Of a stretch of 64,000 nt of DNA, positions 12,455 to 38,137 are shown piece by piece; positions within the stretch are counted from its first letter, which is position 1; every line of letters begins with the position of its first letter. The DNA lies in NCBI RefSeq assembly GCF_054482595.1, contig NZ_CM137008.1; one strand, given 5' to 3'. The position numbers and the translations under genes were made by a program. The notes under the pieces are model-generated. The model was given only the letters and a program-made list of their open reading frames with translations. It made no database searches and was not told the origin of the DNA.

Positions 12455-12480
12455 TTCCCCTTAATCCAGCAAAGATAAAA

Positions 12481-12519: not shown

Positions 12520-12557
12520 GCGAGCATATGCGCACTTTGTTCGATGGAAACACCGTG

Positions 12558-14201: not shown

Positions 14202-14866
14202 AAATTCTGATTGTTGAAGACGATACGCTGTTATTGCAGGGACTGATTCTGGCGGCGCAAACCGAAGGCTACGCGTGCGATGGCGTGACAACCGCGCGGA
14301 TGGCGGAACAAAGCCTTGAGGCCGGTCATTACAGCCTGGTGGTACTGGATTTAGGGTTACCCGACGAAGATGGACTGCATTTTCTCGCCCGTATCCGGCA
14401 GAAAAAATATACCCTGCCGGTACTGATCCTCACCGCTCGCGATACGCTGACCGACAAAATCGCCGGGCTGGATGTCGGTGCCGACGACTATCTGGTGAAG
14501 CCTTTTGCGCTGGAAGAGTTACATGCCCGTATCCGCGCCCTGCTACGACGCCATAATAATCAGGGCGAAAGTGAGCTGATTGTTGGCAATCTGACGCTGA
14601 ACATGGGTCGCCGTCAGGTATGGATGGGCGGTGAAGAGTTGATTCTGACGCCCAAAGAATATGCTCTGCTGTCACGGTTAATGCTCAAAGCAGGCAGTCC
14701 GGTGCATCGGGAAATTCTCTACAACGACATCTATAACTGGGACAATGAACCCTCGACCAACACCCTGGAAGTGCATATCCACAATCTGCGCGACAAAGTG
14801 GGCAAAGCCCGTATCCGCACCGTGCGCGGCTTTGGCTATATGCTTGTCGCTAATGAGGAAAACTAA
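14198..14866 (+). CDS. basR: OmpR-family response regulator BasR (PmrA)
   Basis: 222 aa; receiver domain plus winged-helix; 4-bp overlap with eptA stop. Confidence 0.92.
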
Positions 14867-14875
14867 TTGAATCTG

Positions 14876-15967: not shown

Positions 15968-16032
15968 AGAAAGCTGCTGACCACCAGCACGCTGAACACG
16001 GTAGTTAAACTTTCATAAACACGGTTTTTCAT
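15943..16032 (-). CDS. pmrR: small membrane peptide PmrR (29 aa)
   Basis: Reverse strand translates exactly to MKNRVYESLTTVFSVLVVSSFLYIWFATY*; overlaps the last 25 nt of basS on the opposite strand; not in the supplied ORF track. Confidence 0.8.
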   Translation of the reverse strand: MKNRVYESLTTVFSVLVVSSFLYIWFATY

Positions 16033-16146
16033 TGCACTCTCCTCCGTTAACCTGGAGGAGAGTATGCGCGGCAGAGATTAAGTGAACCTTAAGAGTTCAA
16101 TTGTTGGTCTGATAAGACAGCGTCACATCAGGCCATCCGTTTCAGC

Positions 16147-17649: not shown

Positions 17650-17912
17650 AGCTTTCCTCGCAGAGTTGGCCCATTTCCGCAAACGCCAGAAAAATCAGCG
17701 CGACGGCCGCAAAAGGGGAGCGGGAATTGCAGGATGCAATCTCTGTAACAAGCGTAGCGGGTTTGCTTACACCCTCCGGTTAAGGAATGTACAATCAAAC
17801 CAGTTGACGCCTGAATTGGGCAGTTAATGACCTTTTTACCCTACCAGCGTTTAAATTTGTGATCAACTTCACACATGAATTTCGTTTAGGACTCATTGAT
17901 GTAACTGATTAT

Positions 17913-18791
17913 TTACACCAAATTTACAGAGAAGATTTCCTCGAGCATTGCCCCCGCCAGACGCTGCGCTGAACAGAGTCGTGGCATCCCCAGCGCGACA
18001 GTTTGCCAGCGTTGGGTCACTGACCAGCAAACGGGTTGTTTATCTGCCGTGGTCCACTTTCCCAGCCAACTTAAAAAATCAGCATGATCCCCGCCCGTCG
18101 GAACGGTCGAAGAGGCAAACCACTGATGGTAATAGTGACGCGTGGTCGGGGCCGCATTGATACTCTCTGCCAGATGTTGTGTCGCTTTCACGCGCAAATC
18201 ACCCAGCAACAACGCCACCGCTTGCGGGCTTCCCAGACGACAGGCATCGCCAAATGCCCCCCAACGCAACTCTTCGAGAACGATAAAACAGCGCCCAGGC
18301 AACGACCAGGCGTTATACGCCCCAGCACGCCAGCGGGTAAAAATTTGCTCGCTCTGTTCACCCGCCTGCACCAGTAGGCCTCGTTGCGTTAACGCCTTTT
18401 CCTTCCAGCGACAACGGGCTGAAAACCACTCATACAAGGCGGCAATTTGCTGGGGGAGCTCCGGGAAAGCAGAGTGCTGGCGGTGATCCATTTTTTGCAG
18501 CAGCGCCAGATGCTGCGCGATCTGCGTCAGTGCCAGATGACCGGGATCCAGCATCGACGCCAGTTTTTCCACCAATGTCAAACGCAGGCTAAGCGGCGCA
18601 TTTAACATTCCGCCGTTCGTCCATGTCTGAAGCTGCACGCGCGCAAGAAGTTCCTGCATCAGTCGTTCACGAAACTGCTGCTGATGGGCTTGTGGAAGGC
18701 GGGCATCATCGCCCTGCGCCAGATCCACTAAAAAGCGGGGATAAACCGACTCCAGCACGCGACCGGGGCCGTCAAGTAACGTCTTGGTCAA
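17913..18791 (-). CDS. yjcZ: uncharacterised protein YjcZ
   Basis: 292 aa; position downstream of crfC as in K-12; 4-bp overlap with crfC stop. Confidence 0.8.
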   Translation of the reverse strand: MTKTLLDGPGRVLESVYPRFLVDLAQGDDARLPQAHQQQFRERLMQELLARVQLQTWTNGGMLNAPLSLRLTLVEKLASMLDPGHLALTQIAQHLALLQKMDHRQHSAFPELPQQIAALYEWFSARCRWKEKALTQRGLLVQAGEQSEQIFTRWRAGAYNAWSLPGRCFIVLEELRWGAFGDACRLGSPQAVALLLGDLRVKATQHLAESINAAPTTRHYYHQWFASSTVPTGGDHADFLSWLGKWTTADKQPVCWSVTQRWQTVALGMPRLCSAQRLAGAMLEEIFSVNLV

Positions 18792-21016: not shown

Positions 21017-21417
21017 AGAAAATTCTTCCTTAAAGCAAATTTTATTACTTTTATTTAGCCAGATTGTTTTTGAGTTCTGTTTTCGGCTTTTATAATTACT
21101 GCAAGAAATAATTTTATATTTAGAGCGTTGTTTTTTATTAGAATAAATAACATCTTCCGATACGTTTAAAACGTCAGAAAGATAAAAATATCATGTGAAT
21201 TAAAAAAAGAACAAGTAGAGCATTAACCTTATCTTAAATAATAAATGGAGGCAAAAAGATTATTTTCTTTTTGCGTTTCCTTTCAAATGAAAACGATCGT
21301 CGTCTAAAATCAGCAGTACCCCCGACAAACTCAGGGATTTTGTGTATAATTGCGGCCTTTTTCGGCAATCTGCCGTTTTTTGGCGCTTTTGCCCTGCTGA
21401 CTTTTGAGGAAATCCAC

Positions 21418-21753
21418 ATGTCATTACCACACTGCCCAAAATGCAACTCCGAATACACTTACGAAGATAACGGCATGTACATCTGCCCGGAATGTGCCTA
21501 CGAATGGAACGACGCAGAACCTGCACAGGAAAGCGACGAGCTGATCGTTAAAGATGCTAACGGCAATCTGCTGGCTGACGGCGACAGCGTTACCATCATT
21601 AAAGATCTGAAGGTGAAAGGTAGCTCTTCGATGCTGAAAATTGGCACCAAAGTGAAAAACATCCGCCTGGTTGAAGGCGACCATAACATCGATTGCAAAA
21701 TCGACGGTTTTGGTCCGATGAAACTGAAATCTGAGTTTGTGAAAAAGAACTGA
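21418..21753 (+). CDS. phnA: zinc-ribbon protein PhnA (YjdM)
   Basis: 111 aa from ATG at 21418 ([30 protein letters not shown]...); CxxC...CxxC zinc ribbon; the track ORF is extended upstream. Confidence 0.88.
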
Positions 21754-21771
21754 TTGTATTGTGATCGGTAA

Positions 21772-22247
<476 letters not shown>

Positions 22248-22310
22248 GCCTCTCATCTGTATAAATTTCGAACTACACTTAACTGGCTTCTCTTAACTGA
22301 GGTCACCATC

Positions 22311-22754
22311 ATGCCGTTAAGTCCCTACCTCTCTTTTGCCGGTAACTGTGCCGACGCAATTGCTTATTATCAACGTACGTTGGGCGCGGAACTGCTCTAT
22401 AAAATCAGCTTCGGCGAAATGCCAAAATCAGCGCAGGACAGCGCCGAGAACTGCCCTTCCGGAATGCAATTTCCCGATACCGCCATCGCCCACGCCAATG
22501 TGCGTATTGCCGGAAGCGATATCATGATGAGCGATGCTATACCGTCAGGAAAAGCCAGCTACTCCGGCTTTACGCTGGTGCTCGATTCGCAACAGGTCGA
22601 AGAAGGAAAACGCTGGTTTGATAACCTTGCCGCTAACGGAAAAATCGAAATGGCCTGGCAGGAAACTTTCTGGGCGCATGGCTTCGGCAAAGTCACCGAT
22701 AAATTTGGCGTACCGTGGATGATTAATGTCGTCAAACAACAACCAACGCAATAA
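22311..22754 (+). CDS. phnB: glyoxalase/bleomycin-resistance-fold protein PhnB (YjdN)
   Basis: 147 aa; position between phnA and phnC. Confidence 0.85.
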   Translation: MPLSPYLSFAGNCADAIAYYQRTLGAELLYKISFGEMPKSAQDSAENCPSGMQFPDTAIAHANVRIAGSDIMMSDAIPSGKASYSGFTLVLDSQQVEEGKRWFDNLAANGKIEMAWQETFWAHGFGKVTDKFGVPWMINVVKQQPTQ

Positions 22755-22809
22755 TCCGCCGGGAGGCCCGCCCTCCCGCACTGTCATCGAATTCCCGTTA
22801 ACTCTTCAT

Positions 22810-22847
22810 CTGTTAGTCACTTTTCATTAACCAAACCGTCACAATAA
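22810..22847 (+). promoter_or_regulatory. candidate Pho box (PhoB binding) of the phnC promoter
   Basis: 7-bp elements separated by 4-bp spacers (ctgttag-tcac-ttttcat-taac-caaaccg-tcac-aataatc) 40-80 bp upstream of phnC; phn operon is an established Pho regulon member. Confidence 0.55.
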
Positions 22848-22886
22848 TCCGCCACGATGGAGCCACTTTTTTAGGGAGGCTGCATC

Positions 22887-23675
22887 ATGCAAACGATTAT
22901 CCGCGTCGAGAAGCTCGCCAAAACCTTCAATCAGCATCAGGCGCTGCATGCGGTTGATCTGAACATTCATCACGGTGAAATGGTGGCTCTGCTTGGGCCG
23001 TCGGGTTCCGGCAAATCCACCCTTTTACGTCACTTAAGCGGCCTGATTGTCGGCGATAAAAAGCCAGAATGCCGCGTCGAACTGCTGGGCCGTACCGTCC
23101 AGCAAAATGGCCGTCTGGCCCGCGATATCCGCAAAAGCCGCGCCCATACCGGCTACATCTTCCAACAATTCAACCTGGTGAACCGCCTGAGCGTACTGGA
23201 GAACGTGCTGATTGGCGCGCTCGGCAGCACGCCGTTCTGGCGCACCTGTTTTAGTTGGTTCACCCGCGAGCAGAAACAGCGCGCGTTACAGGCGCTGACC
23301 CGCGTTGGCATGGTGCATTTTGCCCATCAGCGCGTTTCCACCCTCTCCGGCGGCCAGCAGCAGCGTGTAGCGATTGCCCGCGCGCTGATGCAGCAGGCGA
23401 AGGTGATTCTCGCCGACGAACCGATCGCCTCGCTGGACCCGGAATCGGCGCGCATCGTGATGGACACCCTGCGCGACATCAACCAGAACGACGGCATCAC
23501 CGTGGTCGTCACGCTGCATCAGGTGGATTACGCCCTGCGCTACTGCGAGCGCATCGTCGCCCTGCGTCAGGGGCACGTCTTCTACGACGGCAGCAGCCAA
23601 TTGTTTGATAACGATCGTTTTGACCATCTCTACCGCAGCATTAACCGCGTCGAAGAGAACGCGAAAGCTGCCTGA
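22887..23675 (+). CDS. phnC: phosphonate ABC transporter ATP-binding protein
   Basis: 262 aa; Walker [13 protein letters not shown] signature LSGGQQQR. Confidence 0.93.
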
Positions 23676-23699
23676 CATCCCCATCATTGAGGAAAACGA

Positions 23700-24716
23700 A
23701 TGAACGCTAAGATAATTGCCTCGCTGGCCTTCACCAGCATGTTCAGCCTCAGCACCCTGTTTAGCCCGGCGCACGCCGAAGAGCAGGAAAAGGCGCTGAA
23801 TTTCGGCATTATTTCAACGGAATCACAGCAAAACCTGAAACCGCAATGGACGCCGTTTTTACAGGATATGGAGAAGAAGCTGGGCGTGAAGGTCAACGCC
23901 TTCTTTGCCCCGGACTACGCGGGCATTATCCAGGGAATGCGCTTCAACAAAGTGGATATCGCCTGGTACGGCAACCTGTCGGCAATGGAAGCGGTGGATC
24001 GCGCCAACGGCCAGGTCTTCGCCCAGACGGTCGCGGCGGATGGATCGCCGGGTTACTGGAGCGTGTTGATCGTCAACAAAGACAGTCCGATCAACAACCT
24101 GAGCGATCTGCTGGCGAAGCGGAAAGATCTCACCTTCGGCAATGGCGATCCTAACTCCACCTCTGGCTTCCTCGTCCCCGGTTACTACGTCTTTGCCAAA
24201 AACAATATCTCCGCTAACGACTTTAAGCGCACCGTCAACGCCGGGCATGAAACCAACGCGCTGGCCGTCGCCAACAAGCAGGTGGATGTGGCGACCAACA
24301 ACACCGAAAACCTCGACAAACTGAAAACCTCCGCGCCGGAGAAGCTCAAAGAGCTGAAGGTGATCTGGAAGTCGCCGCTAATCCCAGGCGATCCGATCGT
24401 CTGGCGCAAGAATCTGTCCGAAACCACCAAAGACAAGATCTACGACTTCTTTATGAATTACGGCAAGACGCCGGAAGAGAAAGCGGTGCTGGAACGCCTG
24501 GGCTGGGCGCCGTTCCGCGCCTCCAGCGACCTGCAACTGGTGCCGATTCGCCAGCTCGCGCTGTTTAAAGAGATGCAGGGCGTGAAAAGCAATAAAGGAC
24601 TGAATGAGCAGGACAAGCTGGCAAAAACCACCGAGATTCAGGCGCAGCTGGATGACCTGGACCGCCTGAACAACGCGTTAAGCGCGATGAGTTCGGTGAG
24701 TAAAGCGGTGCAGTAA
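23700..24716 (+). CDS. phnD: phosphonate ABC transporter periplasmic binding protein
   Basis: 338 aa with N-terminal signal peptide. Confidence 0.93.
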   Translation: MNAKIIASLAFTSMFSLSTLFSPAHAEEQEKALNFGIISTESQQNLKPQWTPFLQDMEKKLGVKVNAFFAPDYAGIIQGMRFNKVDIAWYGNLSAMEAVDRANGQVFAQTVAADGSPGYWSVLIVNKDSPINNLSDLLAKRKDLTFGNGDPNSTSGFLVPGYYVFAKNNISANDFKRTVNAGHETNALAVANKQVDVATNNTENLDKLKTSAPEKLKELKVIWKSPLIPGDPIVWRKNLSETTKDKIYDFFMNYGKTPEEKAVLERLGWAPFRASSDLQLVPIRQLALFKEMQGVKSNKGLNEQDKLAKTTEIQAQLDDLDRLNNALSAMSSVSKAVQ

Positions 24717-24720
24717 ATCG

Positions 24721-24808
24721 TAGGTCGGATAAGACGCCCCGGCGTCGCATCCGACAATGTGCAGGCGTTGATGCCGGATGCGGTGCAAGCACCTTATCCG
24801 GCCTACAG
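24721..24808. repeat. REP element pair between phnD and phnE
   Basis: ggtcggataagacgccccggcgtcgcatccgaca ... gatgccggatgcggtg...ccttatccggcctaca. Confidence 0.8.
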
Positions 24809-24821
24809 ACCGGAGCCAAAC

Positions 24822-25601
24822 ATGCAAACCATCACCATCGCCCCACCCAAGCGCAGCTGGTTCTCGCTTCTGAGCTGGGCCGTTGTACTCGCCGTGTTGG
24901 TCGTCTCGTGGCAGGGCGCGGAAATGGCCCCGCTTACGCTGATCAAAGACGGCGGCAACATGGCAACCTTCGCCGCCGACTTCTTCCCGCCCGATTTCAG
25001 CCAGTGGCAGGATTACCTCACCGAAATGGCCGTCACGCTGCAAATCGCCGTCTGGGGCACCGCGCTGGCGGTGGTTCTCTCCATCCCCTTTGGCCTGATG
25101 AGCGCCGAAAACCTGGTGCCGTGGTGGGTTTACCAGCCCGTTCGCCGCCTGATGGACGCCTGCCGCGCCATTAACGAAATGGTCTTCGCCATGCTGTTCG
25201 TGGTCGCCGTCGGCCTCGGCCCGTTCGCTGGCGTGCTGGCGCTGTTTATCCACACCACCGGCGTGCTCTCCAAGCTGCTTTCCGAAGCGGTGGAAGCGAT
25301 TGAACCCGGCCCGGTGGAAGGCATTCGCGCGACCGGCGCTAACAAGCTCGAAGAGATCCTCTACGGCGTGCTGCCGCAGGTGATGCCGCTGCTGATCTCC
25401 TACTCCCTCTATCGCTTCGAATCCAACGTCCGCTCGGCGACCGTCGTCGGCATGGTCGGCGCGGGCGGGATCGGCGTCACGCTGTGGGAAGCGATTCGCG
25501 GTTTCCAGTTCCAGCAAACCTGCGCCCTGATGGTGCTCATCATCGTCACGGTCAGCCTGCTGGATTTCCTCTCTCAACGGTTGCGTAAGCACTTTATCTG
25601 A
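24822..25601 (+). CDS. phnE: phosphonate ABC transporter permease (intact reading frame)
   Basis: 259 aa from ATG at 24822 ([19 protein letters not shown]...), uninterrupted to the stop; the track ORF starts upstream inside the REP element. Confidence 0.88.
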
Positions 25602-25621
25602 TTAGCGAGGCATTGATAGCT

Positions 25622-26347
25622 ATGCACTTGTCTACACATCCGACCAGCTACCCAACACGCTATCAGGAGATAGCCGCAAAACTTGAGCAGGAGCTTCGTC
25701 AACACTACCGCTGCGGCGACTATCTTCCCGCCGAGCAGCAACTGGCGGCGCGCTTTGCGGTGAACCGCCACACCCTGCGTCGCGCCATCGACCAACTGGT
25801 GGAAAAAGGCTGGGTACAGCGCCGTCAGGGCGTCGGCGTGCTGGTGCTGATGCGCCCGTTCGATTACCCGCTCAACGCCCAGGCGCGTTTTAGCCAGAAT
25901 CTGCTGGATCAGGGCAGCCATCCCACCAGCGAAAAACTGCTGTCGGTGCTGCGCCCGGCCTCCGGTCACGTCGCTGACGCGCTGGGGATCAAGGAGGGCG
26001 AGAACGTTATCCACCTGCGCACCCTGCGCCGGGTCAACGGCATCGCGCTCTGTTTGATCGACCACTACTTCGCGGACCTCACCCTCTGGCCGACGCTGCA
26101 ACGCTTCGACAGCGGCTCGCTGCACGATTTTCTGCGCGAGCAAACGGGGATTGCACTGCGCCGCAGCCAGACGCGGATCAGCGCCCGCCGCGCCCAGGCC
26201 AAAGAGAGCCAGCGTCTTGAAATCCCGAATATGTCGCCGCTGCTGTGCGTGCGCACCCTTAACCACCGTGACGGTGAAAGCAGCCCGGCGGAGTACTCCG
26301 TCAGCCTGACGCGCGCCGACATGATTGAATTCACTATGGAGCACTGA
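25622..26347 (+). CDS. phnF: GntR-family regulator of the phn operon
   Basis: 241 aa from ATG at 25622 (MHLSTHPTSYPTRYQEIAAKLEQ...); N-terminal GntR-type HTH. Confidence 0.9.
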   Translation: MHLSTHPTSYPTRYQEIAAKLEQELRQHYRCGDYLPAEQQLAARFAVNRHTLRRAIDQLVEKGWVQRRQGVGVLVLMRPFDYPLNAQARFSQNLLDQGSHPTSEKLLSVLRPASGHVADALGIKEGENVIHLRTLRRVNGIALCLIDHYFADLTLWPTLQRFDSGSLHDFLREQTGIALRRSQTRISARRAQAKESQRLEIPNMSPLLCVRTLNHRDGESSPAEYSVSLTRADMIEFTMEH

Positions 26348-26800
26348 ATGCACGCAGATACCGCGACCCGCCAGCACTGGATGTCCGTACTGGCGCACAG
26401 CCAACCGGCAGAACTGGCAGCACGCCTGAACGCGCTGAACATCACCGCCGACTATGAGGTGATCCGCGCCGCTGAAACTGGCCTGGTACAGATTCAGGCG
26501 CGGATGGGCGGCACCGGCGAACGCTTTTTTGCCGGCGACGCCACGCTCACCCGCGCCGCCGTACGCCTGACTGACGGCACGCTCGGCTACAGCTGGGTGC
26601 TGGGGCGCGACAAACAGCACACCGAACGCTGCGCGCTGATTGACGCGCTGATGCAGCAAACCCGCCACTTTCAAAACTTATTAGAAACTCTTATTGCCCC
26701 GCTGGACGCTGACCGTATGGCACGCATTGCCGCACGCCAGGCCGAAGTGAACGCCAGCCGGGTCGACTTCTTTACGATGGTTCGCGGAGACAACGCATGA
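26348..26800 (+). CDS. phnG: C-P lyase core complex subunit PhnG
   Basis: 150 aa; operon position. Confidence 0.9.
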
Positions 26801-27381
26801 CCCTGGAAACCGCTTTTATGCTTCCCGTGCAGGATGCCCAGCACAGTTTTCGTCGCCTGTTAAAGGCCATGAGCGAGCCGGGCGTGATTGTCGCCCTGCA
26901 TCAGCTCAAACGCGGCTGGCAGCCGCTGAATATCGCCACCACCAGCGTGCTGCTGACGCTGGCCGATAACGACACGCCGGTGTGGCTTGCCGCGCCATTG
27001 AGCAACGATATCGTCAGCCAGAGCCTGCGTTTTCATACCAACGCGCCGCTGGTCAGCCAGCCGGAACAGGCGACCTTCGCGGTAACGGATGAGGCGATTT
27101 CCAGCGAACAGCTTAACGCCCTTTCCACCGGCACCGCCGTTGCGCCGGAAGCGGGCGCAACGCTGATTTTACAGGTCGCCAGCCTGAGCGGCGGGCGCAT
27201 GCTGCGTCTCACCGGCGCGGGTATTGCCGAAGAACGAATGATCGCCCCGCAGCTGCCGGAGTGCATTCTGCACGAACTCACCGAGCGCCCGCACCCGTTC
27301 CCGCTCGGCATCGACCTGATCCTGACCTGCGGCGAGCGCCTGCTGGCTGTTCCGCGAACCACTCATGTGGAGGTGTGCTGA
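26797..27381 (+). CDS. phnH: C-P lyase core complex subunit PhnH
   Basis: 194 aa; 4-bp overlap with phnG. Confidence 0.9.
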
Positions 27382-28445
27382 TGTACGTTGCCGTGAAAGG
27401 GGGCGAGAAGGCGATCGACGCCGCCCACGCCCTGCAAGAGAGCCGACGCCGGGGCGATACCGATTTGCCTGAACTGAGCGTCGCCCAGATTGAACAGCAG
27501 CTTAACCTCGCAGTAGATCGCGTGATGACCGAAGGCGGCATTGCCGACCGCGAACTGGCGGCGCTGGCGCTGAAACAGGCCAGCGGCGATAACGTCGAAG
27601 CAATTTTCCTGCTGCGCGCCTACCGCACCACGCTGGCGAAGCTCGCGGTAAGCGAGCCGCTCGACACCACGGAGATGCGCCTCGAACGGCGTATTTCGGC
27701 GGTTTATAAAGACATTCCCGGCGGCCAGCTGCTTGGCCCAACCTACGACTACACCCATCGCCTGCTCGATTTCACCCTGCTGGCAAACGGCGAAGCGCCG
27801 ACGCTGACCACCGCCGACAGCGAACAACAGCCGTCGCCGCACGTTTTCAGCCTGCTGGCGCGTCAGGGGCTGGCGAAGTTTGAAGAGGATAGCGGCGCAC
27901 AGCCGGATGACATCACCCGCACGCCACCGGTTTACCCCTGCTCACGTTCTTCCCGCCTGCAACAGCTCATGCGCGGCGACGAAGGCTATTTGCTGGCGCT
28001 GGCCTACTCCACCCAACGCGGTTACGGGCGCAATCACCCGTTCGCGGGTGAAATCCGCAGTGGTTACATCGACGTGTCGATTGTGCCGGAAGAGCTGGGA
28101 TTTGCGGTGAACGTCGGCGAACTGCTGATGACTGAGTGTGAAATGGTCAACGGTTTTATCGACCCACCGGATGAATCTCCGCACTTCACGCGCGGCTACG
28201 GGCTGGTGTTCGGCATGAGCGAGCGCAAAGCGATGGCGATGGCGCTGGTCGACCGCGCTCTGCAAGCCCCGGAGTACGGCGAGCACGCGACAGGCCCGGC
28301 GCAGGATGAAGAGTTCGTGCTGGCACATGCCGACAACGTCGAAGCCGCAGGCTTTGTCTCGCACCTCAAACTCCCGCACTACGTCGATTTCCAGGCCGAA
28401 CTGGAGCTACTCAAACGTCTGCAACAGGAGCAGAACCATGGCTAA
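27381..28445 (+). CDS. phnI: C-P lyase core complex subunit PhnI
   Basis: 354 aa from ATG at 27381 preceded by ggagg; the track ORF is extended upstream. Confidence 0.9.
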   Translation: MYVAVKGGEKAIDAAHALQESRRRGDTDLPELSVAQIEQQLNLAVDRVMTEGGIADRELAALALKQASGDNVEAIFLLRAYRTTLAKLAVSEPLDTTEMRLERRISAVYKDIPGGQLLGPTYDYTHRLLDFTLLANGEAPTLTTADSEQQPSPHVFSLLARQGLAKFEEDSGAQPDDITRTPPVYPCSRSSRLQQLMRGDEGYLLALAYSTQRGYGRNHPFAGEIRSGYIDVSIVPEELGFAVNVGELLMTECEMVNGFIDPPDESPHFTRGYGLVFGMSERKAMAMALVDRALQAPEYGEHATGPAQDEEFVLAHADNVEAAGFVSHLKLPHYVDFQAELELLKRLQQEQNHG

Positions 28446-29283
28446 TCTGAGCGGCTACAACTTTGCCTACCTCGACGAGCAGACCAAACGCATGATCCGC
28501 CGCGCCATCTTAAAAGCGGTGGCAATCCCCGGTTATCAGGTGCCGTTTGGCGGGCGCGAGATGCCAATGCCGTACGGCTGGGGAACCGGCGGCATACAGC
28601 TCACCGCCAGCGTGATTGGCGAAAGCGACGTGTTGAAGGTGATTGACCAGGGCGCGGATGACACCACCAACGCCGTGTCGATCCGCAACTTCTTTAAGCG
28701 CGTGACCGGGGTGAATACCACCGAACGCACGGATGATGCGACGGTTATCCAGACGCGTCACCGCATCCCCGAAACGCCGCTGACCGAAGATCAGATAATT
28801 ATCTTCCAGGTGCCGATCCCCGAACCGCTGCGCTTTATCGAGCCGCGCGAAACGGAAACCCGCACCATGCACGCGCTGGAGGAGTACGGCGTGATGCAGG
28901 TGAAGCTGTATGAAGATATCGCCCGCTTCGGTCATATCGCCACCACCTACGCCTATCCGGTGAAGGTAAACGGGCGCTACGTAATGGACCCGTCGCCGAT
29001 CCCGAAATTTGATAACCCGAAAATGGACATGATGCCCGCCCTGCAACTGTTCGGCGCAGGGCGCGAAAAGCGCATCTATGCGGTGCCGCCGTTTACCCGC
29101 GTGGAAAGTCTCGATTTCGACGATCACCCGTTCACCGTTCAGCAGTGGGATGAGCCATGCGCCATCTGCGGAACGACCCACAGCTATCTTGATGAAGTGG
29201 TGCTGGATGACGCCGGAAACCGCATGTTTGTCTGCTCCGATACCGATTATTGCCGCCAACAGAGCGAGGCAAAAAGCCAATGA
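28438..29283 (+). CDS. phnJ: C-P lyase catalytic subunit PhnJ
   Basis: 281 aa from ATG at 28438 (MANLSGYNFAYLDEQTKRMIRR...); C-terminal cysteine cluster (CAICGTTHSYLDE...FVCSDTDYC). Confidence 0.9.
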   Translation: MANLSGYNFAYLDEQTKRMIRRAILKAVAIPGYQVPFGGREMPMPYGWGTGGIQLTASVIGESDVLKVIDQGADDTTNAVSIRNFFKRVTGVNTTERTDDATVIQTRHRIPETPLTEDQIIIFQVPIPEPLRFIEPRETETRTMHALEEYGVMQVKLYEDIARFGHIATTYAYPVKVNGRYVMDPSPIPKFDNPKMDMMPALQLFGAGREKRIYAVPPFTRVESLDFDDHPFTVQQWDEPCAICGTTHSYLDEVVLDDAGNRMFVCSDTDYCRQQSEAKSQ

Positions 29284-30038
29284 ATCAACCGTTACTTTCG
29301 GTCAATAACCTGACCCACCTTTACGCGCCGGGCAAAGGTTTTAGCGATGTCTCTTTTGATTTATGGCCGGGAGAAGTGCTGGGCATTGTCGGGGAATCCG
29401 GCTCCGGGAAGACCACGCTGCTGAAATCAATCTCCGCGCGTCTGACGCCGCAACTGGGGGAGATTCACTATGAAAACCGTTCCCTCTATGGCATGAGCGA
29501 GGCCGACCGCCGTCGCCTGCTGCGCACCGAATGGGGCGTAGTGCATCAGCATCCGCTCGACGGCCTGCGCCGCCAGGTGTCGGCAGGCGGCAATATCGGC
29601 GAGCGGCTGATGGCAACCGGGGCGCGTCATTACGGCGACATTCGCGCTACCGCGCAGAAGTGGCTGGAAGAGGTGGAAATTCCCGCCAACCGGATCGACG
29701 ACCTGCCGACCACCTTTTCCGGCGGTATGCAGCAGCGTTTGCAGATTGCCCGCAACCTGGTGACGCATCCGAAGCTGGTGTTTATGGACGAGCCAACCGG
29801 TGGGCTGGATGTGTCGGTGCAGGCGCGCCTGCTCGATCTGCTGCGCGGCCTGGTGGTGGAGCTGAACCTGGCGGTGGTGATTGTCACCCACGATTTAGGC
29901 GTCGCCCGCCTGCTGGCGGACCGTTTGCTGGTGATGAAGCAGGGGCAAGTGGTGGAGAGTGGGTTAACCGACCGCGTGCTCGACGACCCGCATCATCCGT
30001 ATACACAGCTGCTGGTGTCATCGGTTTTGCAGAATTGA
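29280..30038 (+). CDS. phnK: C-P lyase system ABC-type ATPase PhnK
   Basis: 252 aa from ATG at 29280 ([15 protein letters not shown]...); Walker [10 protein letters not shown]. Confidence 0.9.
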
Positions 30039-30039
30039 G

Positions 30040-30129
<90 letters not shown>

Positions 30130-30148
30130 CCGAACCACGAGGCGAAAA

Positions 30149-30829
30149 ATGATTAACGTACAAAACGTCAGTAAAACCTTCATCCTGCACCAGCAAAACG
30201 GCGTGCGCCTGCCCGTCCTCAACCGCGCCTCGCTCATCGTCAACGCGGGCGAATGCGTGGTGCTCCACGGCCATTCCGGCAGCGGAAAATCAACCCTGCT
30301 ACGCTCGCTGTACGCCAACTATCTGCCCGACGAAGGGCAAATCCAGATCAAACACGGCGACGAATGGGTCGATCTGGTCACCGCGCCAGCGCGCAAAGTG
30401 GTGGAGATCCGCAAAACCACCGTCGGCTGGGTGAGCCAGTTTCTGCGCGTCATCCCGCGTATTTCAGCACTGGAAGTGGTGATGCAGCCGCTGCTCGATA
30501 CCGGCGTACCGCGTGAAGCCTGCGCCGCTAAAGCCGCGCGTCTGCTCACCCGCCTGAACGTGCCGGAACGCCTGTGGCACCTGGCGCCATCGACCTTCTC
30601 CGGCGGCGAACAGCAGCGCGTCAACATCGCCCGCGGCTTTATCGTCGACTACCCCATTCTGCTGCTCGACGAACCTACCGCCTCGCTGGACGCTAAAAAC
30701 AGCGCCGCCGTAGTGGAACTGATCCGCGAAGCAAAAGCCCGTGGCGCGGCCATCGTCGGCATTTTCCATGACGAAGCCGTACGCAATGACGTCGCCGACC
30801 GCCTGCACCCAATGGGAGCCTCTGCATGA
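30149..30829 (+). CDS. phnL: C-P lyase system ABC-type ATPase PhnL
   Basis: 226 aa from ATG at 30149 ([15 protein letters not shown]...); Walker [10 protein letters not shown]. Confidence 0.9.
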
Positions 30830-31962
30830 TTATCAATAACGTCAAACTGGTGCTGGAAAACGAAGTGGTAAACGGTTCGCTGGAGATGCAGGACGGCGAA
30901 ATCCGCGCCTTTGCCGAAAGCCAGAGCCGCCTACCGGAGGCGATGGACGGCGAAGGCGGCTGGCTGCTGCCGGGGCTGATTGAGCTGCATACCGATAATC
31001 TGGATAAATTCTTCACCCCGCGCCCGAAAGTTGACTGGCCTGCCCACTCGGCGATGAGCAGCCACGACGCGCTGATGGTGGCGAGCGGCATCACCACCGT
31101 ACTGGACGCCGTGGCAATTGGCGACGTGCGCGACGGCGGCGATCGGCTGGAGAATCTGGAGAAGATGATCAACGCCATCGAAGAGACGCAGAAACGCGGC
31201 GTCAACCGCGCCGAGCACCGTCTGCATCTGCGCTGCGAACTGCCGCATCACACCACGCTGCCGCTGTTTGAAAAACTGGTGCAGCGCGAGCCGGTGACGC
31301 TGGTGTCGCTGATGGACCACTCACCGGGCCAGCGCCAGTTCGCCAACCGCGAGAAGTATCGCGAATATTATCAGGGCAAATACTCGCTCACCGACGCGCA
31401 GATGCAGCAGTATGAAGAGGAACAGCTGGCGCTTGCTGCACGCTGGTCGCAGCCAAATCGCGAATCCATCGCCGCAATGTGCCGCGCGCGACACATTGCG
31501 CTCGCCAGCCACGATGACGCCACCCACGCCCATGTTGCCGAATCCCACCAGCTTGGCAGCGTGATCGCCGAATTTCCCACTACGTTCGAAGCGGCGGAAG
31601 CCTCGCGCAAGCATGGCATGAACGTGCTGATGGGCGCGCCGAATATTGTGCGCGGCGGTTCGCACTCCGGCAACGTGGCGGCCAGTGAACTGGCGCAGCT
31701 TGGCCTGCTGGATATCCTCTCTTCCGACTACTACCCCGCCAGCCTGCTGGATGCGGCGTTCCGCGTCGCCGATGACGAGAGCAACCGCTTTACGCTGCCG
31801 CAGGCGGTGAAGCTGGTGACTAAAAATCCAGCGCAGGCGCTTAATCTCCAGGATCGCGGGGTGATTGGCGAGGGCAAACGCGCCGACCTGGTGCTGGCGC
31901 ATCGCAAGGGCAACCACATTCATATCGACCACGTCTGGCGTCAGGGTAAAAGGGTGTTCTGA
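30826..31962 (+). CDS. phnM: amidohydrolase-family phosphonate pathway enzyme PhnM
   Basis: 378 aa; 4-bp overlap with phnL. Confidence 0.9.
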
Positions 31963-32519
31963 TGACGGGAAAACTGATTTGGTTAATGGGGCCGTCCGGC
32001 TCCGGGAAAGATAGCCTGCTGGCGGAACTCCGCCTGCGGGAACAAACTCAGTTACTGGTGGCGCATCGCTACATCACGCGCGACGCCAGCGCTGGAAGCG
32101 AAAACCATATCGCCCTGAGCGAGCAGGAGTTTTTTACCCGCGCGGGGCAAAACCTACTGGCCTTAAGCTGGCACGCTAACGGTCTGTATTATGGCGTCGG
32201 CGTCGAGATCGACCTCTGGCTGCACGCCGGATTCGACGTGCTGGTCAACGGCTCACGCGCCCATCTGCCGCAGGCGCGGGCGCGCTATGCATCGGCGCTG
32301 CTGCCCATCTGCTTACAGGTGTCGCCGGAGATCCTGCGCCAGCGCCTGGAAAACCGTGGTCGTGAAAACGCCAGTGAAATTAACGCCCGGCTGGCGCGCG
32401 CTGCCCGCTATACTCCACAGGATTGCCATACGCTCAATAATGACGGCAGCCTGCGCCAGTCGGTCGACACGCTGCTGACGCTGATTCATCAGAAGGAGAA
32501 ACACCATGCCTGCTTGTGA
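31962..32519 (+). CDS. phnN: ribose 1,5-bisphosphate phosphokinase PhnN
   Basis: 185 aa; P-loop GPSGSGKDS; 1-bp overlap with phnM stop. Confidence 0.9.
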
Positions 32520-32940
32520 GCTTCGCCCGGCCACGCAGTACGACACCGACGCGGTTTACGCGCTGATTTGTGAGCTAAAACAGGCGGAGTTTGACCATCA
32601 CGCGTTTCGCGTGGGCTTTAACGCCAACCTGCGTGACCCAAACATGCGCTACCATCTGGCGCTGCTGGATGGCGAAGTTGTTGGCATGATCGGCCTGCAT
32701 TTGCAGTTTCATCTGCATCATGTCAACTGGATCGGCGAAATTCAGGAGCTGGTGGTGATGCCGCAGGCGCGCGGTCTGAACGTCGGCAGTAAGTTACTGG
32801 CGTGGGCAGAAGAAGAAGCCCGCCAGGCCGGGGCCGAAATGACCGAGCTTTCCACCAACGTGAAGCGCCACGACGCGCACCGTTTCTATCTGCGCGAAGG
32901 CTACGAGCAGAGCCATTTCCGCTTCACCAAGGCGCTGTAA
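32506..32940 (+). CDS. phnO: aminoalkylphosphonate N-acetyltransferase PhnO
   Basis: 144 aa GNAT-type; overlaps phnN 3' end. Confidence 0.88.
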
Positions 32941-32941
32941 C

Positions 32942-33700
32942 ATGAGCCTGACCCTCACGCTCACGGGCACCGGCGGCGCACAGGGCGTTCCGGCATGGGG
33001 CTGCGAGTGCGCGGCCTGCGCACGAGCGCGACGCTCGCCGCAGTATCGCCGCCAGCCGTGCAGCGGCGTAGTGAAGTTTAACGAGGCTGTCACCCTGATC
33101 GACGCCGGGCTGCACGATCTCACCGATCGCTGGTCGCCAGGATCGTTCCAGCAGTTTTTGCTGACGCATTATCATATGGATCACGTTCAGGGACTGTTTC
33201 CGCTGCGCTGGGGCGTGGGCGATTCGATCCCGGTCTACGGCCCGCCGGATGAACAGGGCTGCGACGATCTGTTTAAACATCCGGGCCTGCTTGATTTCAG
33301 CCACACGGTGGAACCGTTTGTGGTGTTCGATTTGCAGGGGTTGCAGGTGACACCGCTGCCGCTAAACCACTCAAAACTGACCTTCGGTTATCTGCTGGAA
33401 ACGGCACACAGCCGGGTGGCGTGGCTGTCTGACACCGCAGGCCTGCCGGAAAAAACGCTGAAATTTTTACACAATAATCAGCTACAGGTAATGGTGATTG
33501 ATTGCAGCCACCCGCCGCGCGAGGATGCACCGCGTAATCACTGTGATTTAAATACCGTGCTTGCGCTGAATCAGGTTATCCGCTCGCCACGGGTGATTCT
33601 GACCCATATCAGCCACCAGTTTGATGCGTGGCTGATGGAGAACGCGCTGCCGTCAGGGTTTGAGGCGGGGTTTGATGGGATGGAGATTGGGGTGGCGTGA
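32942..33700 (+). CDS. phnP: metallo-beta-lactamase-fold phosphodiesterase PhnP
   Basis: 252 aa; HxHxDH motif ([10 protein letters not shown]). Confidence 0.9.
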
Positions 33701-33732
33701 TGGGGGAGAATGTGCGCGCTGATGCCCTCATC

Positions 33733-33820
33733 CCGGCCCTCTCCCACAGGGAGAGGGAGAAAATCACCCCGTGCACCATCGGTCCCCTCGCCCCTTTGGG
33801 GAGAGGGTTAGGGTGAGGGG
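33733..33820. repeat. GC-rich palindromic intergenic element (family uncertain, possibly Box C-like)
   Basis: ccctctccc-aca-gggagaggg followed by cccctcgcccctttggggagagggttagggtgagggg between convergent phnP and yjdP. Confidence 0.5.
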
Positions 33821-33843
33821 CGATGCCAGCACCCGAGCCTACC

Positions 33844-34173
33844 TCACCGCCCATACTCATCTTCCATTCTCCGCTCTTCATCCTCCAGTTGCCGACGCTC
33901 CTGATCAAGCTGACGTTGGCGATCGTCCAGCTGCCTGCGGCGATCTTCAAACTGGCGGCGGCGGTCGTCATATTGTCTGCGCCGATCGTCGCTCACTTCA
34001 CGCTGCCAGCCGTCGTCGCGCGAATCTTCATAATCTCGCCCACGGTCAGGGTTATAAGCATCGTTAATCGCCTGCTGAATATTGCCAATGGTGTCGTCGA
34101 TAATATCGGCCTGGGCCGGTACGGTGGTCAGCGTGAGCAGGGTGAAAAAAAAGAGCGTGGAGTGGCGTTTCAT
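33844..34173 (-). CDS. yjdP: small secreted low-complexity protein YjdP
   Basis: 109 aa; N-terminal signal peptide; C-terminal DDRRRQ/ERRQ repeats; convergent with phnP as in K-12. Confidence 0.75.
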   Translation of the reverse strand: MKRHSTLFFFTLLTLTTVPAQADIIDDTIGNIQQAINDAYNPDRGRDYEDSRDDGWQREVSDDRRRQYDDRRRQFEDRRRQLDDRQRQLDQERRQLEDEERRMEDEYGR

Positions 34174-34241
34174 AAACTCGGCCTCGCAACAAAGTTAATA
34201 CAAGGTAGGCAAAGGTGCCTGTTACGAGTAGAGGAGGATTC

Positions 34242-36503
34242 TCAATTCTCTTGCCCCAGCGCCTGCGCCAACTGCGCACGGGTAAAGGGTTTGCGCAACA
34301 GCGCCACGTCTGGCAGCGCGGGGTTATGGCTGGGGCGTAAATCCTGACCGCTGATGAGTAGCAGCGTCAGGTGCGGGTAAAGTTTGCGGGCCGCATTGAC
34401 CACTTCTGCGCCGCTCATGCCGCCGGGGAGCATTAAATCGCTGATAAAAATATCGATTTCTGCTGATGCCGCCAGCAGATCCAGCGCCTGTTCGCCGCTG
34501 CTTGCTTCCAGCGTCAAATAGCCCAGCAGGTGCAACTGTTCGCAGATGGTCTGGCGCACCGCGGCTTCATCTTCCAGCACTAACACCAGTTTATCGCCGC
34601 TGACAGAAGCCTGTTCTACTGCCGCTGGCGATAGGTTTTTCGCCGCCGTCAGCGCGCGGGGAAGCTGTAATCTGACCGTTGTCCCCTGCCCCGGCGCGCT
34701 TTCAATTTCAACGCGCCCACCGGACTGGCGCACAAAACCATAGACCATCGACAAACCCAGCCCGCTGCCGCTGCCCGTCTGTTTGGTGGTAAAGAATGGC
34801 TCAAATACCTGGCTTTTCACCGCCTGCGACATACCGCTGCCATGATCGATGACCTCCAGTGCCACCATGTCCTGACGCTGCCCACTGCTGCGAGTAACGC
34901 GCTGATTCCAGGTACGAATTTTGATGATTCCCGTCTGCCCTTCCATCGCGTCACGGGCGTTCATCACCAGGTTGATGATGGCATTTTCCAGTTGGCTGAC
35001 GTCAATCCACGCGGGCCACGCCGGAGACTGCGCTTCAATCTCCAGCGCCAGCGTTGCCGGTAAGGAGTGGCGCATTAATTCGCTTAACTCTTCCAGCAAT
35101 GTTTTCAGTTCAACGGCTTGCGGATGTAAGGACTGCTTGCGGGAAAACGCCAGCAGTCGTTGTGTCAGTAGCGCCCCACGTTCGGCAGCTTGCAGCGCCC
35201 GCTGTATTCGCGGCGCGTCTGGCGAGTCCGGATTCACCAGCTCCAGGCTGCCAATAATCACCGCCAGCAGATTATTAAAATCATGGGCCAGCCCGCCCGT
35301 CAGTTGCCCGACCGCTTTCAGTTTCTGGCTGTGTAATAGCGCCTCTTCCAACCCCTGCCGCTCAGTTTGGGCAATCTCCATCTGCGTGGTCTTCTCTTTT
35401 AGCAGCCGTGAGGTTCGTTCGAGTGACTCGGTATTGCGGGCAAAAACGTTAAAGGCGCGCGCCAGTTCACCCAACTCATCACGCCGCTGTAACGCCGGAA
35501 AAGTGACGTCCGCTTCGCCGTACGCCAGGCGGCTCATGGCGCGGGAAATCGCCGTCAGGTTAGTGCCGAGGTTGCGATAGATATACCAGCCGGCAAACGC
35601 GGTGATCACCACCGCTAACAGGGCGAAAATCATGATCACCCTCTCGCCGGAGCGCAAATCCTGGTAACTTTGCGCCACGCGCTGACCGGAGAGCGTCGCC
35701 ACCTGTTCGGCGTAACGGTTGATGTCGCCATTGAGGATCGCCACCAGCGCTTTGATGTGAAACATATACCAGCTGATTGCCAGATCGCTTTGCTCCAGAG
35801 CGGCAGAAAGCGGCGCGAGTTTACGCATTTCATCATTGAAATCATTGAGTAACGTATTAACCAATGGCATATCGCTGTGGGTCGGCAACGCAGACATTAC
35901 CCCGACCAGTTGATGAATAATCGCCTGCGGCGCGGGGGTGGCAATAGCGGCAACAATCAGTCGGTTCATCTCGTTAAGCAAAATATCATCTTGCGCGTGA
36001 GTGACTTTTTGCAGATGCCGCAGATAACTTAAGTTTTGATACAGCGAACTTAACAGCGCGTTGCGCTCCAGATGCCGCCTTTGCCCGCGCTCCAGCATAC
36101 CGCCGACGCTGGTTTGCAGTTCGTTGCTACGCGTGATGATTCGCGTCACCAGCCCGGCTTCCTGCTGCGCTAAAGGCGCGTTCGCCAGTTGTGCAAGCGA
36201 GCTTTTTAATGCCCGCTGTGTCTCCTGCAACCGCTCGGCTTCGCCTTTATATTCCAGCGCTCCCACCACCTGCGACAATCGCACCGCCGCCGTTGCCACG
36301 TTTGCCGTGTCGCGCGCCAGATTCAGGCTGCCGGTCATATCATCCACCGTTTGCTGCTGCACCAGCTCCTGCATCTGGCTGGCATGACGAAAGCCCATTA
36401 CCGCCACGCCGCTGACCATCAACGTCACCGCCACCACCAGCAAATTCAAAAGCAGCAATCGCCCGCGCGCGCTGGCAAAAAAATGACGTCCGGGGTGCGC
36501 CAT
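34242..36503 (-). CDS. hybrid sensor histidine kinase (periplasmic sensor, HAMP, HisKA, HATPase, C-terminal receiver; no HPt domain)
   Basis: ~753 aa from ATG at 36503 (MAHPGRHFF...) with GGAG 8 nt upstream; two TM segments flank a ~300 aa periplasmic region; H-box GGLAHDFNNLL; G-boxes DHGSGM / GSGLGLSMV; receiver with ISDLMLPGG; protein ends ~25 aa after the receiver. Confidence 0.85.
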   Translation of the reverse strand: MAHPGRHFFASARGRLLLLNLLVVAVTLMVSGVAVMGFRHASQMQELVQQQTVDDMTGSLNLARDTANVATAAVRLSQVVGALEYKGEAERLQETQRALKSSLAQLANAPLAQQEAGLVTRIITRSNELQTSVGGMLERGQRRHLERNALLSSLYQNLSYLRHLQKVTHAQDDILLNEMNRLIVAAIATPAPQAIIHQLVGVMSALPTHSDMPLVNTLLNDFNDEMRKLAPLSAALEQSDLAISWYMFHIKALVAILNGDINRYAEQVATLSGQRVAQSYQDLRSGERVIMIFALLAVVITAFAGWYIYRNLGTNLTAISRAMSRLAYGEADVTFPALQRRDELGELARAFNVFARNTESLERTSRLLKEKTTQMEIAQTERQGLEEALLHSQKLKAVGQLTGGLAHDFNNLLAVIIGSLELVNPDSPDAPRIQRALQAAERGALLTQRLLAFSRKQSLHPQAVELKTLLEELSELMRHSLPATLALEIEAQSPAWPAWIDVSQLENAIINLVMNARDAMEGQTGIIKIRTWNQRVTRSSGQRQDMVALEVIDHGSGMSQAVKSQVFEPFFTTKQTGSGSGLGLSMVYGFVRQSGGRVEIESAPGQGTTVRLQLPRALTAAKNLSPAAVEQASVSGDKLVLVLEDEAAVRQTICEQLHLLGYLTLEASSGEQALDLLAASAEIDIFISDLMLPGGMSGAEVVNAARKLYPHLTLLLISGQDLRPSHNPALPDVALLRKPFTRAQLAQALGQEN

Positions 36504-36616
36504 ATCACGCTCCGTGAAGAAAAATCGCAATATGACAAATATGAACGGCTTCTGACATTTTGCATTTACTTTCCTGTGATGGAGTGCTGATATCGACAAC
36601 CTCGCAGGAGTCCACC
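36504..36616. promoter_or_regulatory. divergent promoter region between the sensor kinase gene and the ABC transporter operon
   Basis: 113-bp AT-rich spacer between divergent start codons; direct repeats tgacaaatatgaa (36533-36545) and tgacattttgcat (36553-36565) spaced 20 bp apart. Confidence 0.5.
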
Positions 36617-38137
36617 ATGAACAGCACGCCAGTTCTGGAGATGCGCAATATTGCCAAAGCCTTCGGCAAATTTTATGCACTCAAAGGGGTGGATTTGACG
36701 GTCTACCCTGGCGAGATCCATGCCCTGATGGGGGAAAACGGCGCGGGAAAAAGCACGCTGATGAAGGTGCTGGCGGGGGCGTATACCGCCACCAGCGGCG
36801 AGATCCTCATAGACGGCAAGCCCTTTCACATTCGCACGCCAAAAGATGCCTTAAGCGCCGGTATTACGCTGATTTATCAGGAGATGCAGCTGGCACCGAA
36901 TCTGTCGGTGGCAGAAAATATTTTTCTCGGCAGCGAGCTTTCCCACGGCGGGCTGGTGCAGCGTAAAGAGATGCTAGTGCAGGCGCAAAAAGTGATCGAC
37001 CGCCTCGGCGCGCAGTTTAACGCCAGCGATAAGGTCATGACGCTGACCATTGCCGAGCAACAGCAGGTCGAAATCGCCCGCGCACTACATCGCAACAGCC
37101 GCATTCTGGTGATGGACGAACCCACCGCTGCCCTCTCCTCCCGTGAAACTCACCGTCTGTTTGAACTGATTATGCGGCTGCGCGATGAAGGGATGGCGAT
37201 TATCTACATCAGCCACCGTATGGCGGAAGTGTATGAGCTTTCCGATCGCGTCAGCGTGCTGCGCGACGGGCAATACGTTGGCAGCCTGACCCGCGATAAC
37301 CTCAATGCCGGGGAGCTGGTGCGGATGATGGTCGGCAGGCCACTGAGCGATCTGTTCAATAAAGAGCGCGATATCCCGCTCGGTAAAGCCCGCCTGAATG
37401 TTCACCACCTGACCGACGGCGGCAAAGTCCAGCCGAGTAGCCTGCTGGTGCGTTCCGGCGAAATTGTTGGCCTCGCCGGACTGGTGGGTGCCGGACGTTC
37501 CGAACTGGCGCAGTTGATCTTCGGCGTGCGGAAAGCGACAGGCGGAATGATTGAAGTCGATGGTGAACCGGTGGTGATCCACTCCCCGCGCGAAGCCATC
37601 GATCTTGGCATTGGTTTTCTCACCGAAAACCGCAAAGAACAAGGCTTATTCCTTGAAATGGCAGCAGCCGAAAACATCACCATGGCAACCCTGGAGCGCG
37701 ATGCCCGCTGGGGAATGCTCAATCGCAAAAAAGCGCAAACCATTTCCGATGACGCCATTAAGTTGCTCAACATTCGCGTGCCTCACGCCCAGGTACGCGC
37801 GGGCGGGCTTTCCGGCGGCAATCAGCAAAAACTGTTGATCTCCCGCTGGGTGGCGATTGGCCCGCGCATTTTACTGCTCGATGAACCCACCCGCGGCGTG
37901 GACGTTGGCGCCAAAAGCGAGATCTACCGGATCATGAACGAGATGGCGCGCAAGGGCGTGGCGATCCTGATGATCTCCAGCGAACTGCCGGAGATAGTGG
38001 GAATGAGCGATCGCGTCTATGTGATGCGCGAAGGCAGCATTGCCGGTGAGTTAAACGGCAAAAACATCACCCAGGAAAACATTATGACCTTAGCGACTGG
38101 CGTCAACGACGCCCATTCCCAGGCGGTAACCTCATGA
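36617..38137 (+). CDS. sugar ABC transporter ATP-binding protein, tandem ABC domains (RbsA/CUT2-type)
   Basis: 506 aa from ATG at 36617 ([16 protein letters not shown]...) preceded by aggag; two Walker A motifs ([18 protein letters not shown]) and two signature motifs (LSGGNQQK in the second half). Confidence 0.88.

Follow-up and report, generated by a model that had tools for sequence, protein, structure and literature searches.

The pho box and the related operators of M. tuberculosis PhoP, KdpE and PmrA consist of two direct-repeat half-sites that adjoin or overlap the -35 element of a weak promoter and are read by winged-helix response regulators, the domains of PhoB binding their direct repeats head-to-tail (PMC4415409). 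In the case of M. tuberculosis PhoP, the operator is described in PMC4832192 as 7-bp repeats with a 4-bp spacer, which amounts to an 11-bp period, and the period of the pho box is likewise 11 bp (7 + 4). In the tor region of E. coli K-12 (torR-torC), four decameric boxes, of which 1 and 2 are adjacent and have a 10-bp period, serve TorR, which also belongs to the OmpR/PhoB family.

The closest described system is that of E. coli island OI-167, whose two-component pair is named RbfS/RbfR (Liu et al. 2022, PMC9860305) or LmvK/LmvR, with the operon lmuKAIZYX (Yang et al. 2023, mBio, PMC10128022). Mannose and lyxose induce this operon, whose genes are cotranscribed, and lmvK and lmvR are both required (PMC10128022). 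The transcription start of lmuX has been mapped by 5' RACE, a 240-nt promoter probe is shifted by LmvR, and the DNase I footprint of LmvR, made with the acetyl-phosphate-treated protein, extends over positions -41 to -62 of the lmuX promoter, ending at -41 and holding the repeat ATATGA-N3-ATATGA; a probe from which the 22 footprinted nucleotides have been removed does not bind LmvR (PMC10128022). For lmuX, ChIP-seq puts the summit at 5215274, which is 69 nt upstream of the start codon at 5215205, and overexpression of LmvR raises lmuX 694-fold while lmvK goes to 0.26-fold (about 4-fold down; padj 2.7e-16, RNA-seq, Table S3; PMC10128022).

The window analysed here (the whole stretch of 64,000 nucleotides of contig NZ_CM137008.1) carries this lyxose/mannose-utilisation island, located between yjdP and yjcS. 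Its lmvK-lmuX spacer shows 100% identity to those of EDL933 and Sakai, and the 5.2 kb around it are 100% identical to several complete E. coli genomes, for example that of the non-O157 strain XH990. Published reagents can be placed directly: the EDL933 deletion primer edl5436-del-F is the minus strand of 36489-36538 (36538..36489), the EMSA primers of PMC10128022 delimit 36388-36626, and ChIP summit 5215274 maps to 36548. Set beside the LmvR operator of EDL933 (PMC10128022), the locus shows no sequence difference (same DNA, regulator, footprint, repeat, operon and ChIP peak), and the feature is one already known from direct experiments on identical DNA. Its parts are collected in Table 1; the kinase start codon occupies 36501-36503 (cat on the + strand) and the transporter ATG 36617-36619.

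Table 1. Positions, in the window, of the lmvK-lmuX spacer, its elements and the genes of the island
Feature	Position	Strand	Basis or remark
lmvK / rbfS (Z5692, EDL933_5436), hybrid sensor histidine kinase, 753 aa	34242..36503	-	Pfam (HAMP, HisKA, HATPase, REC); RefSeq annotation of identical locus; PMC9860305, PMC10128022
Divergent spacer lmvK-lmuX, 113 bp	36504..36616	.	Identity to EDL933/Sakai
LmvR (RbfR) site ATATGA-N3-ATATGA, half-sites 36530-35 and 36539-44, 9-bp period	36530..36544	+	Published footprint and EMSA, ChIP summit, repeat search, conservation
E1 (LmvR site as conserved element)	36531-46		15/16 positions invariant in 12 species
Linker, 5 nt, constant length	36547..36551	.	0/5 positions invariant
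E2, CTGACATTnTnCnTTTAy, holds TGACA #2	36552-69	+	14/18 positions invariant; outside the footprint
Candidate -35 of lmuX, CTGACA	36552-57	+	Inferred
Candidate -10 of lmvK, nAnAAT	36562..36557	-	Conservation
Candidate alternative lmvK promoter: -35 ATGTCA, 18 nt, -10 CATATT	36558..53 and 36534..29	-	Sequence
Candidate -10 of lmuX, TGTGAT	36575..36580	+	Sequence, cross-species table
Alternative extended -10-like TGnTnnAnT	36577-85	+	Better conserved than TGTGAT
Interval for the lmuX transcription start	36585..36592	+	Arithmetic on the published footprint
Shine-Dalgarno AGGAG of lmuX	36606..36610	+	Sequence; partly conserved
lmuX, ATPase of the sugar ABC transporter, heading the activated operon	36617..38137	+	Annotation, Pfam, expression data
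lmuY, permease	38134-39108	+	Annotation, Pfam
lmuZ, binding protein	39127-40068	+	Annotation, Pfam
lmuI, D-lyxose/D-mannose isomerase	40123-40806	+	Annotation, Pfam
lmuA, ketose-bisphosphate aldolase	40821-41681	+	Annotation, Pfam
lmuK, PfkB kinase	41678-42679	+	Annotation, Pfam
lmvR / rbfR (Z5684, EDL933_5428), OmpR/PhoB-family response regulator, 235 aa, convergent	42676-43383	-	Pfam, NCBIfam

The regulator has the receiver and winged-helix domains expected of a protein that occupies an OmpR/PhoB-type operator (Response_reg, 1.2e-25; Trans_reg_C, 1.8e-22; Pfam), and its best NCBIfam matches are OmpR, VirG and PhoB, all under the equivalog cut-offs. LmvK terminates in a receiver domain and is without an Hpt domain, yet phosphotransfer in vitro to the separate regulator has been reported. 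The periplasmic binding protein of the operon is distantly related to TorT and ChvE; by analogy with TorT-TorS, this suggests that it assists in sensing the sugar.

A sequence-only reading of this spacer had proposed that two TGACA cores, 20 bp apart, are the tandem half-sites of an OmpR/PhoB-family dimer positioned to act on either or both divergent genes. The cores are indeed present within the 113 bp: tgacaaatatgaa begins at 36533 and tgacattttgcat at 36553, with TGACA #1 at 36533-37, TGACA #2 at 36553-57 and an offset of exactly 20 bp. As a property of a single sequence, the pair carries no significance. When the spacer is shuffled 5,000 times with its dinucleotides preserved, some 5-mer direct repeat is found in 98.9%, one at 20-22 bp spacing in 18%, and one at 9-12 or 19-22 bp in 44%; the expectation of TGACA-N15-TGACA in the 64-kb window is 0.10, for a pattern that was picked post hoc. 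The longest direct repeat of the spacer, and the sole one returned by a repeat finder, is a different one, AATATGA (36529-35 and 36538-44), with its copies 9 bp apart.

The two half-sites of the published ATATGA-N3-ATATGA would lie within these copies, at the positions given in Table 1. Since a 22-nt footprint that holds both copies of ATATGA must end somewhere in 36544-36551, the lmuX start is confined to the interval listed there. TGACA #1 is the 3' part of half-site 1 (ATATGAca), which it overlaps. By the same requirement that both ATATGA copies be held, TGACA #2 is left outside the footprint; footprint arithmetic places it between about -39 and -28, in the -35 region, and at a spacing from half-site 2 of 11 bp as against the 9 bp that separate the true half-sites. 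The preferred reading, to which a probability of roughly three in four is given, is that the spacer is the known OI-167 control region, with LmvR on ATATGA-N3-ATATGA and TGACA #2 as a part of the core promoter rather than a half-site.

The proposal that the two TGACA cores are themselves the half-sites of one dimer is to be weighed against the same data. Both cores are invariant at a constant 20 bp in 12 species, the regulator is of the right family, and the ChIP summit falls between them. On the other hand, the footprint may include TGACA #1 but, with both ATATGA copies in its 22 nt, cannot reach 36553-57; the probe without the footprint keeps TGACA #2 and is not shifted; the pair is statistically ordinary in a single sequence; and dimers of this family touch half-sites 10-11 bp apart, about one helical turn, not 20. 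These considerations make the proposal highly improbable. The ATATGA pair, with its 9-bp spacing, is near one helical turn, although a half-site period of 9 bp is unusual for the OmpR/PhoB family. Thus, the earlier interpretation holds with respect to the region, the family of the regulator (by its domains), the binding of that regulator to the spacer in vitro and in vivo (PMC10128022) and an effect on both divergent genes, as seen on LmvR overexpression; its repeat unit and the logic of its spacing do not hold, and the motif is corrected from TGACA-N15-TGACA to ATATGA-N3-ATATGA.

Comparison with other species locates the constraint more precisely. One genome per species was scanned, and 11 further syntenic islands, with kinase identities of 61-83%, were found in Citrobacter sp. 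FP75, C. werkmanii, Pseudescherichia vulneris, Escherichia sp. ESNIH1, Enterobacteriaceae RIT691, Leclercia adecarboxylata, Enterobacter sp. Bisph1, Cedecea neteri, a soil MAG, Serratia plymuthica and Acerihabitans arboris. The orthologous spacers are 113-321 bp long and mostly unalignable, save for one indel-free block of 39 bp at 36531-69, TATGACAAAyATGAAC-N5-CTGACATTnTnCnTTTAy. In the 12 species 29/39 positions of this block are invariant, and 10/74 in the remaining spacer; the corresponding figures for lmuX are 14% of third codon positions and 71% and 83% of first and second ones. The block is composed of the LmvR site (E1), a short variable linker and a second element, E2. Its degenerate 39-nt pattern is found once per island locus and in 0/69 other fetched loci (nearly all with only paralogous kinases), and a search of the islands at up to 4-5 mismatches finds E1 and E2 nowhere but in the spacer.

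The block stands 45-50 nt from the lmuX ATG in all of the species and 27-232 nt from the kinase ATG, the latter distance varying because of GC-rich palindromic insertions; its fixed distance on the one side and variable distance on the other imply that the block belongs primarily to the lmuX promoter. Half-sites that are conserved in orthologous loci with fixed spacing to the core promoter are also what is expected of an OmpR/PhoB operator. The TGACA pair shares in this conservation, both cores and their 20-bp offset being kept in 12/12 orthologous spacers (E. coli and the 11 other species), and it is because it is conserved, not because it is repeated, that the pair stands above chance. Both of the outcomes on which the sequence-only reading had made itself dependent, persistence of the repeats in orthologous islands and regulator binding to the fragment (published in PMC10128022), are found. 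Cross-species conservation and E2 are not described in the main text of PMC10128022.

Within E. coli, the spacers of the window, of O157:H7 Sakai and of the three lowest-identity genomes among the matches listed differ at a single position, A/C at 36597, downstream of the inferred start. (In CP52E the kinase gene is frameshifted.) Other features of the orthologous islands are more fluid. The spacers of loci L003, L007 and L009, 186-321 bp in length, have GC-rich palindromic repeat elements (…CCCTCTCCC…GGGAGAGGG…) between the block and the kinase start. The islands of Cedecea neteri (L009) and Acerihabitans arboris (L012) are without lmuA and lmuK (about 4600-6300) but have kept transporter, isomerase, the two regulators and the promoter block, in agreement with the reported dispensability of lmuA and lmuK for growth on lyxose (PMC10128022). 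The kinases of Enterobacter sp. Bisph1, Cedecea, the soil MAG, Serratia and Acerihabitans (L008-L012; gene from about 10001) have an N-terminal sensor part that is ~100 residues longer and align well only over the transmitter half, yet the promoter block of these islands is still invariant.

The half-sites of E1 are not strictly a perfect repeat. The second one is ACATGA in Serratia and Acerihabitans, and the conserved core is thus better written as TATGAC-AAA-yATGAAC. No credible ATATGA-N3-ATATGA-like site, at up to 3 mismatches, is found upstream of lmvR in the 11 other species. A ChIP-seq 'peak' has been assigned to lmvR; its summit, 5208778, lies inside the lmvR coding sequence (EDL933 NZ_CP008957 5208439-5209146, which is 42676-43383 of the window), and it could be a copy-number artefact, the ChIP strain having lmvR on a plasmid. 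The ~200 nt upstream of lmvR in nine non-E. coli species (L002-L010) have the motifs CTGACGAAAAACA, TGACGTGnCGAA, TGTGAC-N5-GTTAAAgAT and CAGAAT in common, and in Leclercia and Cedecea (L007, L009) a related TGTGAc…GGTTAACTATTCA copy stands next to the LmvR site of the spacer. The E. coli region upstream of lmvR (43384-43675) is AT-rich and unrelated to that of the nine species; it shares with the lmvK-lmuX spacer the 9-mer ATTTTGCAT (lmvR-yjcS region, about 43626-34), within the published lmvR EMSA probe.

Among the known systems, tor resembles the locus in layout: both have direct repeats in a divergent spacer of ~110-130 bp, and in both the regulator activates one catabolic operon and appears to lower the divergent regulatory gene. 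The likeness extends to sequence. The minus-strand sequence of the LmvR site, CCGTTCATAT / TTGTCATAT, is similar to the tor boxes, and the half-site core TTCATAT is common to CCGTTCATAT and to CTGTTCATAT and CCGTTCATCC of tor. With a 9/10 match to the TorR box CTGTTCATAT, the second half-site, read as CCGTTCATAT (36539-48, minus strand), is the only sequence of the 64-kb window to reach that score or a better one (P=0.009 for the spacer), and its first 8 nt are those of tor box 3. The differences are nevertheless substantial. The LmvR site has two half-sites and a 9-bp period in place of four decamers, of which boxes 1 and 2 have a period of 10 bp; CTGTTCATAT is on the strand of the activated torC, whereas here that reading is opposite to the lmuX strand and points away; the divergently transcribed gene encodes a kinase here but, in tor, the response regulator; and LmvR, with 36% identity to TorR, scores 163 bits against the NCBIfam TorR equivalog, whose cut-off is 275. 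Membership of the TorR regulon is rejected on the grounds of box orientation, period and this failure to qualify as a TorR orthologue by NCBIfam, and a resemblance is all that is claimed. The minus-strand TGTCA units of the spacer similarly recall the pho-box core, CTGTCAT. The LmvR site differs from the pho box in its period (9 bp and not 11), in being located at -41 to -62, upstream of the -35 element and not in its place, and in an orientation to the activated gene opposite to that of the pho-box core.

TGACA #2 is most likely part of the -35 region of lmuX. CTGACA matches TTGACA at 5/6 positions and is followed after 17 nt, in 10/12 species, by TGTGAT, a 4/6 match to the -10 consensus that lacks the A at position 2; this combination predicts a start near 36587, within the interval that the footprint allows. 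The consensus promoter and terminator scan of 36300-36800 gives no matches, and a weak -10 with no consensus-like promoter fits a promoter that is near-silent without its activator. The better conserved, extended -10-like TGnTnnAnT would put CTGACA at -40 to -35, 22 nt off, too far for a -35 hexamer. Several other explanations of the spacer sequence were tried and rejected. A leader RNA or riboswitch has no Rfam match at E<=1, and the folding z-score is 0.14; a CRP site at TGTGA (36575) has, by eye, a poor second half-site; and resemblances of E2 to the motifs of CytR (GTTGCATT), FNR, Lrp, Fur and ArcA founder on the natural variants TTATCCATT and TTTTGCGTT, which disrupt the candidate cores.

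The conservation of E2 exceeds what a -35 element normally needs: all 8 nt of CTGACATT, together with a T, a C and TTTA further on, are invariant in the 12 species, and on the strength of this pattern another protein contact may be considered. That E2 is more than a -35 element is a tentative suggestion, which could take the form of overlapping back-to-back core promoters (one LmvR dimer activating lmuX and acting as a roadblock to lmvK) or of a gate on the mannose/lyxose operon, either an operator for a second regulator or a low-affinity contact of LmvR~P. The corresponding readings of E2, as lmuX -35 and constrained spacer, as leftward lmvK core promoter, and as a weak third LmvR contact or site of another factor, are mutually compatible.

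In its strongest form the promoter reading holds that E2 serves mainly as core promoter for the divergent kinase gene, or as the site of a second regulator, and that this, and not a role as lmuX -35, explains the conservation of TGACA #2; it is a possible reading, with the odds against it. Across the 12 species the minus strand has CAAAAT, GATAAT or CACAAT at 36562..36557, a pattern nAnAAT that varies only at hexamer positions 1 and 3 and keeps the most important -10 positions. The invariant bases run on into the spacer of the lmuX promoter, which would normally be free to vary. An alternative ATGTCA/18/CATATT arrangement is also available for lmvK, and with either layout the LmvR site falls inside the promoter or immediately beyond it in the downstream direction, consistent with the 4-fold decrease of lmvK on LmvR overexpression. 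Against it, nAnAAT lacks an acceptable -35, and the distance from block to kinase ATG (27-232 nt, with repeat-element insertions) is not kept; as for a second regulator, annotation and Pfam identify no second DNA-binding protein encoded in the island. A kinase promoter in E2 is in any case compatible with the preferred reading, as the two promoters may overlap.

A third LmvR unit has less to recommend it. The idea is that LmvR~P oligomerises on TGACA (36533), TGAAC (36542) and TGACA (36553), spaced by 9 and 11 bp, the weaker third unit lying over the -35 in the manner of PhoB-type class II activation. The three units are invariant in the 12 species, with no indels between them, and their minus-strand readings TGTCA / GTTCA / TGTCA resemble the PhoB core and the TorR box; the conservation of E2 beyond the -35 hexamer could be accounted for in the same way. 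However, the footprint ends at -41 even with acetyl-phosphate-treated LmvR, and the probe that lacks the footprint is not bound despite its intact unit 3. Moreover, in unit 3 (36550-55) positions 36550 and 36551 are variable, and these are equivalent to the 'AT' that is invariant in the true half-sites. The RbfR footprint on the ler promoter (Liu et al.), TCTCACATAATTTATATCATT, has its best ungapped match in the spacer on TCTGACATTTTGCATTTACTT, in E2, at 13/21, but with P=0.12 this is not significant. A contact of this kind is accordingly considered unlikely.

The ler footprint (PMC9860305), an independent one for the same protein, speaks for the ATATGA layout of the LmvR site and against TGACA as its half-site. 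The complementary strand of TCTCACATAATTTATATCATT has ATATAA-N3-ATGTGA, a 10/12 match in the same 6-N3-6 layout, and is without TGACA; a match of at least 9/12 to this operator layout arises in 6.8% of shuffles. Yang et al. predicted a ler site, ATTTTA-N3-ATTAGA, that is not the one footprinted in PMC9860305, so that the two papers give different ler sites for the same protein.

Under the preferred reading, the spacer would work as follows. With mannose or lyxose present, LmvR~P occupies the tandem repeat at -41 to -62 and turns on lmuXYZIAK several-hundred-fold, as shown in EDL933 (PMC10128022). The lmuX promoter would consist of the CTGACA -35 and the weak -10 TGTGAT, a combination that probably makes it dependent on an activator bound just upstream, and the 20-bp offset of the TGACA cores would simply follow from the constant placement of the activator site relative to the -35. 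To judge from position, the LmvR site may overlap the leftward lmvK promoter or be located a short way downstream of it, where its occupancy would hinder lmvK transcription, in the way that TorR, bound to tor boxes 1 and 2, represses torR. Liu et al. (PMC9860305) report that rbfS (lmvK) rises 3-fold with riboflavin, which does not fit simple repression of lmvK under natural conditions.

The regulator, its operator, the activated operon and the link to control of EHEC virulence were published in 2022-2023; what the present analysis adds is that the operator and E2 are deeply conserved and that the island is widespread beyond EHEC. Both papers describe the island as essentially restricted to EHEC O157:H7, O145:H28 and O55:H7 (PMC9860305, PMC10128022). 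OI-167 is carried by 410/5,426 complete E. coli genomes, among which are isolates not labelled EHEC (XH990 from urine, APEC37, ETEC6335 and O157:H16 Santai), and it is present with the same gene order in 11 other species of Enterobacterales. Its occurrence beyond EHEC bears on published claims that its acquisition was a step in the evolution of O157:H7. The near-invariance of the operator and E2 in 12 Enterobacterales indicates that the ancestral role of the two-component system is control of the neighbouring sugar operon, not of virulence.
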